From Alphaproteobacteria bacterium (GTDB lineage Bacteria > Pseudomonadota > Alphaproteobacteria > SMXQ01), in NCBI GenBank assembly GCA_046297835.1, contig JBKBHI010000007.1:151101-215100 (forward strand): DNA of 64,000 nt, in the 5' to 3' direction. Both the position numbers and the translations under genes were made by a program. Numbering within the stretch: the first letter of the stretch is position 1; every line of letters starts with the position of its first letter. Of the stretch, positions 8,691-54,996 are shown in pieces. The notes beneath the pieces are model-generated. The model was not told the origin of the DNA. It saw only the letters and a program-made list of their open reading frames with translations, and made no database searches.

Positions 8691-9869
8691 TTAGCCGTAA
8701 AGCCACCTCTCGCCGTCAAGGCCGGGACGGCCCGGATATTTCGCGGCGACCGCGCGGACCGATGGATGGTCGAGTACGCCGAGCCGGCCGTTGTCGTGCA
8801 GAGTCTGATTGCCGACGACGAGCGTCGCGCCGCGCGCCTCGGCCGCCGTATGCAAGTTGTAGGGAAAATTCTTGCCGCCGCGGCCGAGATGCATGTGCAC
8901 CGCGCCGGTGTGGAACGAGGCGATGAACTCGCGGTAATCCTCGTCGGGGCATTGCGCTGCGGTGACGTTGGCGCAGGGGTGCACGCCGCCATGCGGGCCG
9001 CGGATTTCAAAGGCGTAGTCGTCGCCGACGCTCTTGGCCAATTCATGGAGGAACCGTTCGATGACGGCGGCTTCGGGGCCACCCTCGAACTTGGTCATGT
9101 GGTTGTTTTCGACAGTGATGCGCACCGGCGCGCTGAAGCGCGGCGGGATGCCGATATGGCGCGCCCACACCGGCATCATCCGGTCGCAGATGAAGACGCC
9201 CTGGGTGTCGAGCGGATTGACCGCCGGATAAATGCCTTCCGGGAAGGGGCGATAACGCCCGTCATGGCGCCAGTAGGCATAGCTGTCGCCGCCCCGGATC
9301 GGGTCGCCCGAACTGCCTTCGAGATGCGTGCCGTTGGGGTGGGTCAGCCGCCAGCGATCGCCCGGCTTCATCATTTCGGCCATGCGGTAGCGGATTTCCG
9401 AGATCAACTCGTGCGGCGTGCGCGCCCAGGCGCTGCACAACAGCGGCGCCGTCGTCGCCATGTTGCGCACCATCGGCACCTTGTTCTCGGCGAGGATGTC
9501 GTTCCATTCCTTGGTTTCCTCTTCGGAGGAAAGATCGAGGACATGGCTGATGACGATGTCGGCACCCTTCACCGCGTGCTTGAGCACCGGCGGCACGCGC
9601 CAGATGGTTTCCTTCGTCGGGATGTCCGGCCAAATGACGTTCGGACGGACCGGCATATCGACCCACATCACGGTGGGATGGGCGCCGCGCTGTTGCACGG
9701 CCGCCTGGACCCAGGCGATGGCCGTCTCGTCGACGATGTTGCGGCCGCCATGGAGCCCGTCCGGCGCGGCGACGATCAGGACGTTCTGCCCGGGCTGCAA
9801 GCGGGCGCAGTGCTCGAGCATGTCGTTGATAGCAATGGCCGCTTCGGGAGGCATAGGGGCGTACGACAT
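8691..9869 (-). CDS. Peptidase M29 / NicX-fold protein of unknown function
   Basis: Layout (LQPGQNVLIV...ADIVI...RLTHPNGTHL...FPEG...GVFICD...VRITVENNHMTKFEGGPEA...H...ATLVVGNQTLHDNG) resembles the thermophilic metalloprotease/2,5-dihydroxypyridine dioxygenase fold; remote similarity only. Confidence 0.55.
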   Translation of the reverse strand: MSYAPMPPEAAIAINDMLEHCARLQPGQNVLIVAAPDGLHGGRNIVDETAIAWVQAAVQQRGAHPTVMWVDMPVRPNVIWPDIPTKETIWRVPPVLKHAVKGADIVISHVLDLSSEEETKEWNDILAENKVPMVRNMATTAPLLCSAWARTPHELISEIRYRMAEMMKPGDRWRLTHPNGTHLEGSSGDPIRGGDSYAYWRHDGRYRPFPEGIYPAVNPLDTQGVFICDRMMPVWARHIGIPPRFSAPVRITVENNHMTKFEGGPEAAVIERFLHELAKSVGDDYAFEIRGPHGGVHPCANVTAAQCPDEDYREFIASFHTGAVHMHLGRGGKNFPYNLHTAAEARGATLVVGNQTLHDNGRLGVLDHPSVRAVAAKYPGRPGLDGERWLYG

Positions 9870-9877
9870 GATTTCTC

Positions 9878-10639
9878 CTATGGCGCGCGGCGTTTGCTGA
9901 CGCGGGCGCGTCCGGCCGTCGCGCCGCCGTCGAGGGTGATGACCGCGCCGGTCATGTAGCTGGCGGCGTCGGAGGCGAGAAACGAGACGAGATTGGCGAC
10001 ATCGGCTGACGTGCCGGCGCGGCCGAGCGGGATGTGCGCCGGCTTATCCTCGTCGGCGGATGCCGGGCGATGGCGGATCGTGCCGGGGCAGATACAGTTG
10101 ACGCGAATGCCATCGGGGCCGGCTTCGAGCGCCAGGGTCTTGGTGAACATGGCGACCGCGGCCTTCGAGGCGGCATAGGCAGCGCCGCCGGCGTAAGACA
10201 GAACCCCGCTGATCGAGCCGATATTGACGATGCTGCCGCCACCCTGCTTGCGCATATGGGGCAGGGCGGCCTGGCTACACAGCATGGTGCCGTCGACGTT
10301 GACGCGGAAGGTCTCGCGCCAATGATCGATGTTGTGGCCCTCGACCATTTCGAATGGATGGGCTGCAGCGTTGTTGCACAGCAAATCGAGGCGGCCGAAT
10401 GCGGCCGCAGCGCCGTCGACGGCGGCCCGCGCGCCCTCCGGCGTGCCGATGTCGGCGACGATCACGCGGATGCGGTCTTTATATTCGGCAAGGCTTTCGG
10501 ACGCGCGCGCGCAAGCCGCGCCATCGCGATCGGCTGCGAGCACGGACATGCCTTCGGCGGCGAGATGACGCACGATTTCGAGGCCGATTCCGGCAGCCCC
10601 GCCCGTGACAACGGCTGTTTTACGGACTTGTGTCAACAA
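9878..10639 (-). CDS. Short-chain dehydrogenase/reductase (SDR)
   Basis: TGGAAGIG, NNAA, YAASK, NCICPG. TTG start. Confidence 0.93.
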   Translation of the reverse strand: MLTQVRKTAVVTGGAAGIGLEIVRHLAAEGMSVLAADRDGAACARASESLAEYKDRIRVIVADIGTPEGARAAVDGAAAAFGRLDLLCNNAAAHPFEMVEGHNIDHWRETFRVNVDGTMLCSQAALPHMRKQGGGSIVNIGSISGVLSYAGGAAYAASKAAVAMFTKTLALEAGPDGIRVNCICPGTIRHRPASADEDKPAHIPLGRAGTSADVANLVSFLASDAASYMTGAVITLDGGATAGRARVSKRRAP

Positions 10640-10668
10640 GACCTCACGACGCTTGGCGCGACAGACGC

Positions 10669-10706
10669 AAAAAACGCCCGCCTGCCGGCGCTGGGCCGGC
10701 AGGCGG
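10669..10706 (-). terminator. Intercistronic terminator-like hairpin after the first gene of the catabolic operon
   Basis: Perfect 12-bp stem CCGCCTGCCGGC/GCCGGCAGGCGG, then GCG and six T on the minus strand. Confidence 0.55.
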
Positions 10707-10720
10707 ATATCACGTCGTGC

Positions 10721-11500
10721 TTAGGCCGCGAGGCGCGGGTTCGGAGCCGCCTGCTTGTTGTCGCGCGGCGGCTTGATGCCGGACGCTTCGTAAGCCCATT
10801 CGCCGATCTGATTGAACCACACGGTATTGACCGCCTGACGATCGCGGATGGCGGCAAGGCAAGCCTGCTGCTTCTCGGTCGTGTCGGCGTATTTCGCCAT
10901 GATGTCGAGCGGCGCGTCGCCGTGGCCGCCGTCGGAGGAGTCCGCCTCGTCGGCGGCGTCCCAATGGGCCAGCGCCTTCTGCGAAAGGTTCAGCGCCTTC
11001 CACATGTTGCGCGAGGTGCGGGCGCGTTCGCCGACGCGGGCGATCACTTCCTTGCCGCGCGACGCTTCGTTGCCGGCGATGGCCGCGAAGGCTTCGAGCC
11101 AGGGCTTGGTGCGGCTCACCCAATCGCAATAAGCGATGCGCATCATGGTGACCGGCGCGCCGCTGTAGTTGTAGATGAACTGGCGATCGACGCCGAGGGC
11201 CACGGCGAAATCGACCAAGCTTTCGTAGTGGCCGGTGACGATCGTCGGATCCTTCACCTCTTCGACGAACATGTTCTCGATCAGGTAGCTGCGCACTTCG
11301 AGGTGCGGGCAGTTACCGGTGATGTTGGCCAGCCAGCGCGGGAAATTGGCGGCGAACACGCAATGCTCGAGCGCATAAATGCGCGCGCCTTCGCGCGTCA
11401 GGTTGTTGTCGCGATATTCTTCCCACAGGGTGGGAACGCTCCACCGCAATTTGACGAAGCTGTCGAGGATTTCTTCGCGGAATTGATCGGGCGTGTACAT
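10721..11500 (-). CDS. TenA/PqqC/CADD family heme-oxygenase-like helical protein
   Basis: FP.WL..I...C......L.EN...EE......H......F..ALG, then E145 and AD...H; typical CADD-like spacing. Confidence 0.78.
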   Translation of the reverse strand: MYTPDQFREEILDSFVKLRWSVPTLWEEYRDNNLTREGARIYALEHCVFAANFPRWLANITGNCPHLEVRSYLIENMFVEEVKDPTIVTGHYESLVDFAVALGVDRQFIYNYSGAPVTMMRIAYCDWVSRTKPWLEAFAAIAGNEASRGKEVIARVGERARTSRNMWKALNLSQKALAHWDAADEADSSDGGHGDAPLDIMAKYADTTEKQQACLAAIRDRQAVNTVWFNQIGEWAYEASGIKPPRDNKQAAPNPRLAA

Positions 11501-52020: not shown

Positions 52021-52989
52021 TCAGTCTTCGAACAGCGCCGCCATGCCTTGGGGCGAGAGGAACATGCGCGACAGTTGGTGGCCGACGCCGGGCACGATGG
52101 CCAGCTTGTGATGATGCGGGGCGTAAAAGGCGTCCATGAAAGCGGCGAAAGCGGTGAGGCGGGCGAAACGCGTCGGCCCCTGCGCCTTGGCCGCGCAATG
52201 CTGAGACAAGTTCGGCGCGTTCGGGTCGGTGTCGGCGTCGCCGGCGAGATAAGTGACGCGCCGCGCGCGGTAGCGTTCGATTTGAGTCTTGGCGTCGTCG
52301 CGCTTCACATAGGCGTTGGGTTGATCGAGACCATAATTGTAGGCGTTGGTCTTGCAGTTCGACGGCGGCGGCACGGCGAAATCCGCCGCCTTATAAGCCG
52401 GCGCTCTGCCCGAGACGGGGCGGCGGGCGTCGAGATAGACGACGCTCGACGGATTGGCGACGACGTAGGACACCGGCGGCATCCCCGGCACGTCGCGTCG
52501 CGCCACCGCGTAGCGTTGCGCGTATTGGCCGCCGGCGGAATGGCCGGCGATCACGATCTTGGCGAGGTTGGGGTAGAGCGCGCGGTCGGCGAACGGCGCG
52601 ATGAGTTCGTCCATCACCGCGAAGGAACTGACGCGCGGATTGAAGGCCGTGGTGGACAAGTCGCCGGCGCGCCAATTGGAATTGTTGTCCCAAATCAGCT
52701 TGGTCCTATCCATGCCGGCGCGGTCGTTTTGTTCGTGAAAGAGCGGCGCGACGACCAGCGTCTCCGCGGCCTTGCCGCTGTCGGCGGCGGCGCGCAGGCC
52801 GACGCCGAAATAGTTGCGCACGTTGGCGTCGGTGCCATGGATCACCACGAGCGCGCGTTTGATCTCCGGATGCGGCGCGCGCAATGGCGCGCTGGCGTAA
52901 ACCGTCGTCGAGAGGCCGTTGACGGCGATGGACGATTGGCAGAGAGCGTAATTATATCCGCAATCGACGGCGGCGACGAAACGCGACAT
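52021..52989 (-). CDS. Alpha/beta-hydrolase-fold protein, start uncertain
   Basis: VIHG, nucleophile elbow GHSAGG, VVANPSS, G.AD, VPGVGH. Confidence 0.75.
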   Translation of the reverse strand: MSRFVAAVDCGYNYALCQSSIAVNGLSTTVYASAPLRAPHPEIKRALVVIHGTDANVRNYFGVGLRAAADSGKAAETLVVAPLFHEQNDRAGMDRTKLIWDNNSNWRAGDLSTTAFNPRVSSFAVMDELIAPFADRALYPNLAKIVIAGHSAGGQYAQRYAVARRDVPGMPPVSYVVANPSSVVYLDARRPVSGRAPAYKAADFAVPPPSNCKTNAYNYGLDQPNAYVKRDDAKTQIERYRARRVTYLAGDADTDPNAPNLSQHCAAKAQGPTRFARLTAFAAFMDAFYAPHHHKLAIVPGVGHQLSRMFLSPQGMAALFED

Positions 52990-53060
52990 GACAAGCCTCG
53001 GCGATGTGCGGTCGGCATGATATCGCGCCGGCGCGATCGCGCCAACGGCGTCGCCGACTT

Positions 53061-53618
53061 TCAATGCATCACGGTGAGCGGCGTCGCGTGGATGAAACGG
53101 CGGGGCGCGGGCGTGGCAGGATTCGCGCTCCGCTCCGGCAGGGTCAGGCGCGCTTCGGCGAGCGCGGTGGCGAGGCCGCAGGCGTAATCGGTGGCGATGC
53201 GCACTGCCGCCGGCGGCAGCCAGTCGGCAAGCAGCAGCGCCGCGTCGTGCGCGCGTTCGCGCTGCAGGCAGCCGATGGCGCAGAGCAGCCGCGCCTCGTC
53301 TTCCGTCAGGCCGTCGCAACGCGGCCGCCCCATCATGATCGGGCGCGTCGCCGCCGCTTCGAGAATGCTGATGAAAGACTGGAAACAAGCGACGCCGACG
53401 CTGCAAAGCGCGGCGGCGAGGAACCCGTCGCGCCAGTCGGCATGGCCGGCGTTAGGCTCGATCCGTCGCGCGGTCCACAGCCGCAGCGCGACCACCAATA
53501 AGGACTCGGCGGTGCGCAGATCGGTCAGCCGTGTGCCGGCCGGATAGGCGGCGAGCGGATCCAGTTCGGCGCGGTCGAAGTCGGGACGGAAATCGGGACG
53601 CGGAGAGAATTTCGGCAC
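53061..53618 (-). CDS. Hypothetical Cys-containing protein, possibly iron-regulated
   Basis: GTG start after AGGAGC; motif PRC..LT.DEA.LL..I..LQ; Fur-like box upstream. Confidence 0.7.
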   Translation of the reverse strand: MPKFSPRPDFRPDFDRAELDPLAAYPAGTRLTDLRTAESLLVVALRLWTARRIEPNAGHADWRDGFLAAALCSVGVACFQSFISILEAAATRPIMMGRPRCDGLTEDEARLLCAIGCLQRERAHDAALLLADWLPPAAVRIATDYACGLATALAEARLTLPERSANPATPAPRRFIHATPLTVMH

Positions 53619-53788: not shown

Positions 53789-54847
53789 TCAGCGCATGTT
53801 GCCGAGGATGCTGGAGCGGTTGTCCTGCACCTTCTTGATGAAGTTGGTCATCAGATCGAAGGCTTCGTTGCGCTTGTTGGTCAGGCTCTGCATGCGCAGC
53901 ATGTCCATCTGCTGGCTGCTGTTCAGGCTGTCGATCTGGCCCTTGAGCTGCGCGATCTGCAAGTCGAGCTTTTGCGCCCGCTCCAAATCGGCGCCGGCCA
54001 GGTTGGTGGGCAGCTTGGCCCGTTCGGCGTTGAGCTGTTTCACTTGCTCGTTAAATTTCGCAACATCCTGGTTGCGCTGCTGTATCGCGTCGATCTGCGA
54101 CTTGAGCTGGCTTTCGAGCAATTCGGCGCGCTGCGACTGGATCGCCATCATGGCGGATTCGAGATCCAGGCCTTGAATGTCGATGGGCGTGACGCCGCCG
54201 ATGCCGCCGATGCTCGAGCCGCGCGCGGTGGGAGCGCTGCCGGCCGGCGCGTTCGCCGCTTGCGGATTGGCGGCGAGCGCGGAAAGCGTCGCGGTCGGGA
54301 TGGCCGCGCCGGCGCGGCTGACCACCAGCACCTCGTATTGCGGCACGGCGAACTCGCGGCCGTTGAACGCGTACTTGCAGCCGTTGCCGGCGAGCTTGCC
54401 GGGCGTCACGCCGCCTTGGCTCGCGGCGCGGCAGATCGGCAGCAGCGTCTCGCCCTCGCGCGCCGCCATGAACGCGCCCGGCGGCTTTTGGCCGTTTTGC
54501 GCCGGCACCCAGCGGACGAATTGCGGATTCTGCGCCAGCGCGGCGCTGTTGCCGAGCAGCAGATCGTAAGCCGGCAGGCTGACTTCCGCGCCGCCATGGC
54601 CGAAGGCGCAATTTCCGCCGACGACCCGGCCGATTTCGCGCGCGCCTTGATGGCTCGCGGCGCATAGCGCGGTGGGCCGGCCCTGCTCCATGCCGCCCGG
54701 AAGGGCGTTGGCGGGAATCGGCTGGCCGGCGCGCGCGGCCTGCCAGATGACCAGCGTGTCGTCCGCCGGAGCCTGCGCTTGGACAGCGGCGGGCCAGAGA
54801 ACGAGCGCGCCGGCGACGGCGGCGGACAGGAACGCGGGCTTGGTCAT
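53789..54847 (-). CDS. Secreted fusion: signal peptide, two DM9/DUF3421-like repeats, C-terminal Bsp22-like T3SS tip-filament domain
   Basis: Signal peptide ending AVQA; two W...G..P..A...G.E.G....C.....G....G....C.....G.E....Y.(V/L)L repeats; C-terminus QRAELL...QQMDMLRMQSLTNKRNEAFDLMTNF...SSILGNMR. ATG 54847 follows GAGGGG. Confidence 0.72.
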   Translation of the reverse strand: MTKPAFLSAAVAGALVLWPAAVQAQAPADDTLVIWQAARAGQPIPANALPGGMEQGRPTALCAASHQGAREIGRVVGGNCAFGHGGAEVSLPAYDLLLGNSAALAQNPQFVRWVPAQNGQKPPGAFMAAREGETLLPICRAASQGGVTPGKLAGNGCKYAFNGREFAVPQYEVLVVSRAGAAIPTATLSALAANPQAANAPAGSAPTARGSSIGGIGGVTPIDIQGLDLESAMMAIQSQRAELLESQLKSQIDAIQQRNQDVAKFNEQVKQLNAERAKLPTNLAGADLERAQKLDLQIAQLKGQIDSLNSSQQMDMLRMQSLTNKRNEAFDLMTNFIKKVQDNRSSILGNMR

Positions 54848-54996
54848 CGGATTCCCCTCGGGTTGCAGCGAGCGCCGCGTACGACAAACGCGCCGCATCT
54901 CGCGCAGATATAGCCAACTCCGGCGGGCGGCGCTGGAATTTTTCACGGGGATTTGAGCGATCGCGTGCCGGTTCAAGGCGCGTTTGGCGCGTCTTC

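Follow-up and report, generated by a model that had tools for sequence, protein, structure and literature searches.

This analysis concerns a gene on the minus strand of a 64,000-nucleotide stretch of alphaproteobacterial DNA (contig JBKBHI010000007.1; the whole stretch is called the window here), which encodes a 352-residue protein with a likely Sec signal peptide, two DM9 lectin repeats and a C-terminal helical hairpin of the Bsp22 family, the tip-filament family of Bordetella-type (Bsc-type) type III secretion systems (T3SS). On balance we lean towards reading this protein as a Sec-exported, T3SS-independent lectin that is made multivalent by self-association of its Bsp22-like hairpin. The hairpin belongs to a large family, and its occurrence as one conserved module with five export routes in three phyla is a more interesting result than the single protein. 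The features of the gene and its product, with the evidence for each, are as follows.

53789–54847, minus strand: coding sequence of the 352-residue DM9 and Bsp22-like protein, stop codon included; 100% match to database protein P0001.
54776–54847, minus strand: predicted signal peptide, aa 1–24 (MTKPAFLSAAVAGALVLWPAAVQA then QA); hydrophobicity scan and analogous orthologue N-termini.
54551–54751, minus strand: DM9 repeat 1, aa 33–99, with putative sugar-site residues E54, R74 and E88 and with Cys62 and Cys80; Pfam, AlphaFold2 (AF2), Foldseek and conservation.
54320–54517, minus strand: DM9 repeat 2, aa 111–176, with E131, K151 and E165 and with Cys139 and Cys157; phmmer, AF2, site residues of the oyster lectin CGL1, and conservation.
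54218–54319, minus strand: Ala/Pro-rich linker, aa 177–210; disorder in the model extends to about aa 225, into the next part.
53792–54217, minus strand: Bsp22-family domain, aa 211–352; homologue search, alignment and synteny of homologues in T3SS loci.
54017–54163, minus strand: conserved N-terminal hairpin helix, aa 229–277; AF2 models and conserved columns.
53795–53992, minus strand: conserved C-terminal hairpin helix SSQQMDMLRMQSLTNKRNEAFDLMTNFIKKVQDNRSSILGNMR, aa 286–351; AF2 models, conserved columns and a sub-threshold T3SS_needle_F match at aa 300–351.
54854–54859, minus strand: Shine-Dalgarno-like GAGGGG, 6 nt 5' of the ATG at 54847; read from the sequence.
54905–54914, minus strand: -10-like element GGCTATATCT, with CTATAT at 54908–54913; ten bases invariant in three orthologous upstream regions.

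Database searches with the whole protein returned two kinds of relatives, full-length proteins with both DM9 repeats and hairpin (41–77% identical) and many proteins that share only residues ~211–352 (E-values of 1e-31 to 1e-42). Their alignment contains two near-invariant blocks, ...IQGMDLETAMMAVQSNRANLLExQLKxQ... and ...NSQQMDMLRLQSLSNKRNEAFDLMTNFIKKMQDSRSSILGNMR-end, with a variable region between them. In Bsc-type T3SS loci, the bsp22 position is taken by signal-less members of about 200 residues. With E ~1e-40, the hairpin is a homologue of the Acidovorax soli proteins P0021/P0048, located in a T3SS locus where two tandem copies stand between a HrpJ/TyeA gatekeeper gene and genes for a TPR chaperone and SseC-type translocators, with SctF, SctD, SctV, YscX, SctJ, SctL, SctN and YscO in the flanks; a second, metagenomic T3SS locus is similar. 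The Bordetella bsc gene order given in a review is the order seen at the A. soli locus. The CluSeek preprint, using Bsp22 (WP_003820049.1) as a BLASTp query, found one to three Bsp22-like genes per Bsc-related cluster in B. ansorpii, Achromobacter, Acidovorax, Comamonas and Variovorax, and described the N- and C-terminal helices of the homologues as conserved and the core as variable; our genome scan for the hairpin returned the same genera. A proteomics supplement lists two multiple reaction monitoring peptides of B. pertussis BP2256/Bsp22. One, IEVPLNDALR, is identical at 9/10 positions to a T3SS-linked Achromobacter member and at 8/10 to B. ansorpii members, with shuffled versions reaching at most 6/10, while the other, ELESAYTTVK, is uninformative, with matches to family members that do not exceed those of shuffled peptides. 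In the published AlphaFold description of Bsp22, the N-helix spans I26-A74 and the C-helix Y144-M204. Together, the gene position, the order in the review, the preprint, the peptide match and the predicted helices led us to accept the C-terminal domain as a Bsp22 homologue, as the original prediction had proposed, with the link to the type protein being indirect. The helix positions of Bsp22, in a protein of 205 residues, fit a family that ends in ...NMR. The full classical Bsp22 was neither among the profile-search matches listed nor among the 80 loci kept in the genome scan described below.

Until now Bsp22 (SctA) was regarded as the founding member of a tip family specific to the T3SS and confined to Bordetella and a few Burkholderiales. 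A 2020 review mentions "three different genes" in place of bsp22 in B. ansorpii, and at least two of these replacements (L024 and L026; P0123 and P0144) clearly belong to the family and have its conserved helices, which agrees with the CluSeek preprint of 2025. Some T3SS-linked open reading frames (ORFs) are 400–402 residues long, in Acidovorax sp. Leaf78 (L025, 9956–11158) and Achromobacter deleyi (L057, 9362–10570), and these may be fused tandem copies, proteins with an extended C-terminus, or products of a wrong start.

A profile search of 1.84 billion representatives (clusters at 50% identity) gave a hairpin family of at least 1,631 clusters at E<=1e-3, 761 at <=1e-10 and 284 at <=1e-30, and a scan of 185,579 species genomes yielded 202 confirmed loci, 80 of which were kept and underlie all locus counts here. 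Each kept locus was searched with 14 Bsc-type T3SS proteins and was called linked when T3SS genes lay within 10 kb. By this measure 45 of the 80 loci are T3SS-linked, and all members that lack an N-terminal export signal have T3SS genes within that distance. The linked members carry 16–31 residues before the MDLE motif, with a hydrophobicity maximum of at most 1.4, every named one is betaproteobacterial, and Btc22-like genes were found only at their loci. The remaining 35 loci have zero T3SS genes within 10 kb, and wherever the N-terminus is readable their products carry another export device; start-codon choice has probably truncated a few of these 35 members. They span Bacillota, Actinomycetota, and Alpha-, Beta- and Gammaproteobacteria, with the following N-termini.

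N-terminal membrane anchor: Paenibacillus, Cohnella, Brevibacillus and Psychrobacillus.
Sec signal peptide and a small two-Cys domain: Rhodocyclaceae and other betaproteobacterial assemblies.
Sec signal peptide and a Peripla_BP_6 domain: Patulibacter (Actinomycetota).
Double-glycine leader (e.g. LTEEELAQITGG): Microvirga, Pararhizobium, Devosia, Pseudoroseomonas and Pigmentiphaga; genes for HlyD, a Peptidase_C39-ABC exporter and a second ABC protein adjoin in 3/5 loci.
ESPR and two-partner-secretion (TPS) passenger with YDG repeats: Acinetobacter.

The hairpin is also fused to CarboxypepD_reg or NHL repeats in other representatives. The window protein had been described as an orphan with a unique architecture, and neither description was supported: there are at least 14 full-length relatives with DM9 repeats and hairpin, three genes share the same order (in the window and at loci L006 and L007), the hairpin clusters number in the thousand and more counted above, and fusion to exported N-terminal domains is common. 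The proposed search for homologues with other N-terminal cargo was itself productive, with Peripla_BP_6, CarboxypepD_reg, NHL and YDG partners found.

Several of these classes have distinctive surroundings. At 20 loci in Paenibacillaceae, the gene for a membrane-anchored Bsp22-like protein is followed by one for a protein of ~606 residues with two cyclic nucleotide monophosphate (cNMP)-binding domains and a PrsW-family intramembrane protease (L004/L005 8001–10457, L019–L022, L029, L034, L039, L042, L047, L061, L066–L070, L078, L080, L084, L085 and L087), and in Paenibacillus a Crp-type regulator gene also precedes it, which suggests cyclic-nucleotide-controlled proteolytic release of the hairpin in this family. 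Double-glycine-leader members at L077 (9920–16886), with equivalents at L030 and L032, are followed by HlyD, the Peptidase_C39-ABC exporter and a second large ABC protein, so that this alphaproteobacterial and Pigmentiphaga cassette resembles a bacteriocin-like export system for a Bsp22-like protein of ~200 residues. The giant exoproteins of Acinetobacter (L082 4949–10486, L054, P0262 and P0332) contain ESPR, the TPS domain and up to nine YDG repeats, and they end in the hairpin or carry it near the C-terminus, with several hundred further residues after it in P0262 and P0332. The Patulibacter proteins of ~600 residues (L048 8717–10531, L031, L062 and P0323) have a signal peptide, the type-I periplasmic binding domain Peripla_BP_6 and the hairpin, and at L045 and L049 of Paenibacillus a hairpin protein with a signal peptide adjoins a separate Peripla_BP_6 gene. 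No conserved neighbour, including any immunity-like gene, is common to all of the non-T3SS classes.

Hairpin cores with and without T3SS linkage were compared over 106 ungapped positions, using 37 T3SS-linked and 38 non-T3SS sequences for entropy. Each non-T3SS member shares 70–87% identity with the T3SS-linked member nearest to it, about the same level as among the non-T3SS members themselves, and the window hairpin is 75% identical to a T3SS-linked member over these positions. Entropy per column is strongly correlated between the two groups (r = 0.91; Spearman 0.88), 39 of the 106 columns are dominated by one shared residue (90% or more in each group), and the window protein agrees at 38 of those 39; many of the conserved residues are polar (Q, N, R, K, D). 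Since Paenibacillaceae are Gram-positive and, to our knowledge, have neither an injectisome needle nor a translocon, the constraint on the hairpin cannot be contact with other T3SS parts. Self-association would be the simplest common cause.

The Bsp22-family domain of the window protein starts with SSIGGIGGVTPIDIQGLDLES, at the point where signal-less T3SS-linked homologues start directly after their Met (MSAINGIGGVTPMNIQGMDLET...), and this gives the impression that an entire minimal bsp22-like gene was joined behind a DM9 gene and a linker. An AF2 model of the whole protein was built from an alignment of 42 sequences (mean predicted local distance difference test score, pLDDT, 79.9), in which residues 200–225 are disordered with pLDDT <50, and a model of the hairpin alone has a mean pLDDT of 80.6. 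The central region of the hairpin is an 8-residue turn (aa 278–285), versus ~30–130 residues in aligned relatives. The model and alignment thus bear out the Ala/Pro linker, the helical C-terminal domain and the shrunken central region, all of which had been noticed beforehand at these positions. Pfam and NCBIfam searches with the whole protein assigned no model to the C-terminal domain and gave coiled-coil noise only, and PDB sequence searches with the protein and with the family profile found no solved relative of the hairpin. The C-terminal helix drew weak matches to T3SS_needle_F (PF09392) in 34/40 family members, with a best E-value of 7.6e-6, and the window domain matched at E 0.034 (14.8 bits, below the gathering cut-off of 29.4). 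A profile-profile comparison of the hairpin family with Bsc-type SctF by hhalign was not significant (probability 0.6%), so we do not claim homology to the SctF needle despite the recurrent weak Pfam matches.

Export through Sec is indicated by the N-terminus of the window protein, which consists of MTK, a hydrophobic core (Kyte-Doolittle maximum of 2.35 at aa 7–17) and VQA followed by QA, and is likely a typical Sec signal peptide with cleavage after Ala24. The N-termini of orthologues resemble it, and with the hydrophobicity scan they support the cleavable signal peptide first proposed at about aa 1–24. A tblastn search of the window with the 14 Bsc-type T3SS proteins gave zero matches at E<=0.01, in keeping with the earlier statement that the window holds no T3SS gene; no Btc22-like chaperone or translocator gene adjoins the gene there, and no T3SS genes occur within 8 kb of the orthologues at L006 and L007. 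One could still imagine a tip or substrate variant of an injectisome encoded elsewhere in the genome, with a non-functional signal peptide, given that 64 kb of the genome were seen and that the hairpin domain starts with the segment that forms the N-terminus of T3SS-secreted homologues. We regard this as very improbable, however: export signal and T3SS linkage split perfectly in the 80 loci, the T3SS-type N-terminus is buried behind 210 residues, the Cys pairs of the DM9 repeats are conserved and of disulfide type, and both the missing Btc22-like neighbour and the surroundings of the two orthologues speak against it.

The N-terminal half is a two-repeat DM9 domain with a predicted lectin fold. 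Its match to Pfam DM9 (PF11901) has E 5.2e-15 (55.8 bits, cut-off 26.2), phmmer matches the protein to the oyster DM9 lectin CGL1/natterin-3, the beta-rich repeats at aa 33–99 and 111–176 are modelled with pLDDT >90, and Foldseek aligns this half with CGL1 at template-modelling (TM) scores of 0.86–0.87 (rmsd of 1.9–2.0 A, E 2e-9 to 5e-9). The Pfam match, the model and the structural alignment all agree with the two DM9/DUF3421 repeats of the original prediction. In CGL1, mannose site A is formed by Asp22, Lys43 and Glu59, with stacking by His52 and Phe126, and site B includes Lys114 and Glu130; the protein has no disulfides (PMC4932603). HMMER aligns E131/K151/E165 of repeat 2 with D22/K43/E59 of CGL1, and E54/R74/E88 occupy the same acid-base-acid positions of repeat 1 in a repeat-on-repeat alignment. 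Both triads are kept in 14 aligned full-length sequences with DM9 and hairpin, where position 74 is R or K only; the three most divergent have Pro at position 131, perhaps through a shift in the alignment. This conservation makes carbohydrate binding by the DM9 domain plausible. Each repeat also has two Cys (62/80 and 139/157) that are invariant across the same 14 sequences and have no counterpart in cytosolic CGL1, and pairs at equivalent positions fit folding outside the cytoplasm. A homologue search with the DM9 part alone turned up one fragment, which probably reflects a limitation of the word index.

CGL1 and the proteins of the natterin family are homologous, and the N-terminal domain of the latter may aid pore formation via cell-surface carbohydrate (PMC4932603); this invites the view that the hairpin is a membrane-active or toxic module targeted by the DM9 lectin, as in natterin-like toxins or bacteriocins. 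Some relatives do carry bacteriocin-style double-glycine leaders beside C39-ABC/HlyD exporters, others lie inside TpsA exoproteins, and the best structural match of the hairpin is the coiled coil of the translocator IpaB. Nevertheless we consider this improbable. Pfam and PDB searches found no aerolysin-type pore-forming domain, the C-terminal part being an alpha-hairpin, and the hairpin sequence has no hydrophobic segment; Bsp22 itself is a filament subunit whose loss stops translocation of BteA into host cells and not T3SS secretion into the medium; the classes have no immunity-like gene in common; and the gene sits in conserved housekeeping synteny.

The multivalent-lectin reading that we favour can be put as a sequence of steps. 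The signal peptide would route the protein through Sec and be removed after Ala24, and because Sec exports the chain unfolded, a cytoplasmic chaperone of the Btc22 type would be unneeded. The DM9 domain would then fold oxidatively outside the cytoplasm, with one disulfide per repeat, in the predicted lectin fold, and its two acid-base-acid sites, the equivalents of those in CGL1, would probably bind carbohydrate. A flexible linker would tie the domain to the minimal Bsp22-family alpha-hairpin, which, keeping nearly all of the positions conserved in T3SS tip-filament subunits, most likely self-associates outside the cytoplasm into a filament or at least a higher oligomer. In this way a lectin that is weak and monovalent by itself may become, through self-association, a multivalent fibre, adhesin or agglutinin.

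Several points weigh against this reading. Hairpin polymerisation and the formation of a fibre or adhesin are what we infer, and the connection with classical Bsp22 is drawn from a preprint, from gene position and from a single peptide. Bsp22 has a variable central alpha/beta domain that this hairpin lacks and that could matter for filament packing, and Foldseek with the hairpin alone returned generic antiparallel coiled coils, IpaB being the best (TM 0.74, E 0.08), and no match to the EspA filament. The Sec route of a diderm leads no further than the periplasm, and no way across the outer membrane is evident near the gene in the window or at L006 and L007; the T3SS search, for its part, covered 64 kb of the genome. 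Some of the same observations suggest a closed, small coiled-coil oligomer (dimer to tetramer) or a partner-binding domain, in which case the protein would be a periplasmic or envelope glycan-binding protein without a filament, and its DM9 domain would bind periplasmic glucans or cell-wall sugars. Besides the Sec route with no exporter nearby and the generic coiled coils, the window hairpin is the shortest in the family, with no central domain, and the conserved neighbour is an AsmA-family envelope protein. We find this alternative rather unlikely, though the least so of the three, as the retention of 38/39 tip-filament-conserved positions, many of them polar, exceeds the needs of a generic coiled coil, and other family members are clearly sent outside the cell via C39-ABC/HlyD or as TpsA passengers.

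A broader interpretation, which we offer tentatively and hold with less conviction than the account of the window protein itself, is that the hairpin is an autonomous, self-assembling fibre module that is independent of the secretion route and to which at least three phyla have attached binding domains. The T3SS tip filament would then be one co-opted instance of an unrecognised class of extracellular filaments, and the window protein a lectin-decorated version of it; the export routes would be, just as tentatively, Sec, signal anchor, peptidase-containing ABC transporter/type I secretion (PCAT/T1SS), two-partner secretion and T3SS. The T3SS-linked members are all betaproteobacterial and the non-T3SS members are far broader in distribution, so that recruitment of the hairpin into the T3SS is at least as plausible as the repurposing of a T3SS subunit. 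The T3SS may thus be the borrower, reversing the direction of the original prediction.

In the searchable literature, Bsp22-like proteins are discussed only within Bsc-type T3SS clusters, and we found there no Bsp22-like domain with Sec, signal-anchor, double-glycine or TPS export, nor a fusion with DM9. The existence of close Bsp22 homologues (70–87% helix identity) without a T3SS and with four other export routes, including homologues in Gram-positive Paenibacillaceae, is new. It bears on the origin of an axial T3SS component, possibly recruited from, or donated to, T3SS-independent extracellular proteins, and the non-T3SS hairpins provide simple non-pathogen systems for studying how the conserved helices assemble. 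If the hairpin does polymerise, it would be a compact scaffold for the display of binding domains. There is also an annotation gap, as the domain currently has no Pfam or NCBIfam model. NCBI labels the orthologues of the window protein only as "DM9 repeat-containing protein", and the JGI names "prefoldin subunit 5" and "outer membrane murein-binding lipoprotein Lpp" on the Bsp22-like proteins P0150 and P0228 look like coiled-coil mis-annotations.

The reading frame of the gene was taken from the ORF listing and the sequence, with codons at 53792–54847 and the stop at 53789–53791. A longer TTG-initiated ORF reaching 54976 was rejected, since the orthologues begin at the equivalent Met, and the GAGGGGA block of the ribosome-binding region also occurs 5' of the L007 orthologue. 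The -10-like element that had been noted at 54907–54914 (GCTATATC) is present, lies in GGCTATATCT and is conserved at the two orthologous loci, whose upstream regions are 67% identical with that of the window gene outside GGCTATATCT. We take CTATAT to be the alphaproteobacterial -10 consensus. An E. coli-type promoter scan found no sigma-70 site 5' of the gene, and no convincing -35 was seen upstream; that the gene may have its own promoter is a reasonable suggestion. The proportion of G+C at third codon positions is 0.87 in both the DM9 and hairpin halves, so base composition offers no hint that the fusion is recent or the gene horizontally acquired. The gene has no paralogue within the 64-kb window.

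Its neighbours in the window are AsmA, DUF4169, a 185-residue protein without a known family, a hydrolase and TctC, and related alphaproteobacterial metagenome-assembled genomes (L006 and L007) have the order AsmA, DUF4169, the DM9 and hairpin gene, and the 185-residue protein of unknown family. The 185-residue ORF (53061–53618, minus strand) lies directly 3' of the gene, has neither a Pfam match nor a signal peptide, and is kept at the equivalent position in L006 and L007; an AT-rich stretch separates the two genes. It is overlapped by a mechanically called ORF of 461 residues (52021–53406, minus strand), of which only the C-terminal ~319 residues (52024–52980) match an alpha/beta hydrolase, so the real start of that ORF is probably internal. 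L007 has two extra genes (9286–11031) between the DM9 and hairpin gene and the gene for a 183-residue protein: one encodes a 314-residue protein with a Pfam DM9 match and a different helical C-terminus without the Bsp22-like domain, the other a 263-residue exported protein with neither a Pfam match nor a Bsp22-like domain. These genes suggest that exported proteins have expanded locally around the DM9 gene in L007.

Compared with known systems, the window protein is closest in its C-terminal domain to Bsp22 of Bordetella and the Bsp22-like "Asp" proteins of Achromobacter, Acidovorax and related genera, with homologous N- and C-helices (~75% identity to a T3SS-linked member over the 106 core positions), the same conserved columns and the same invariant C-terminus ...GNMR. 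In contrast to them, it adds a Sec signal peptide and a 210-residue N-terminal extension, its gene lies outside a T3SS locus without a nearby Btc22 chaperone or translocators, and the variable central alpha/beta core is cut to the 8-residue turn. SctF needle subunits (PF09392) are matched recurrently and weakly at the C-terminal helix, yet below the Pfam cut-off. The EspA filament of the enteropathogenic E. coli T3SS is likewise built on a hairpin of N- and C-terminal helices that polymerises, with an exposed intervening loop that tolerates insertions, and here the likeness is by analogy only, with no sequence or Foldseek match. In its N-terminal half the window protein has in common with CGL1/CgDM9CP-1 (PDB 5id8, 5idb and 5mh3) and with the N-terminal domain of natterins a two-repeat, N-type lectin fold (TM 0.87), and with CGL1 the acid-base-acid residues of both sugar sites. 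It differs from CGL1 in being bacterial and exported, with two extra Cys per repeat and 23% identity, and its lectin, rather than standing alone or being fused to an aerolysin-type domain as in CGL1 and natterins, is joined to a helical hairpin.

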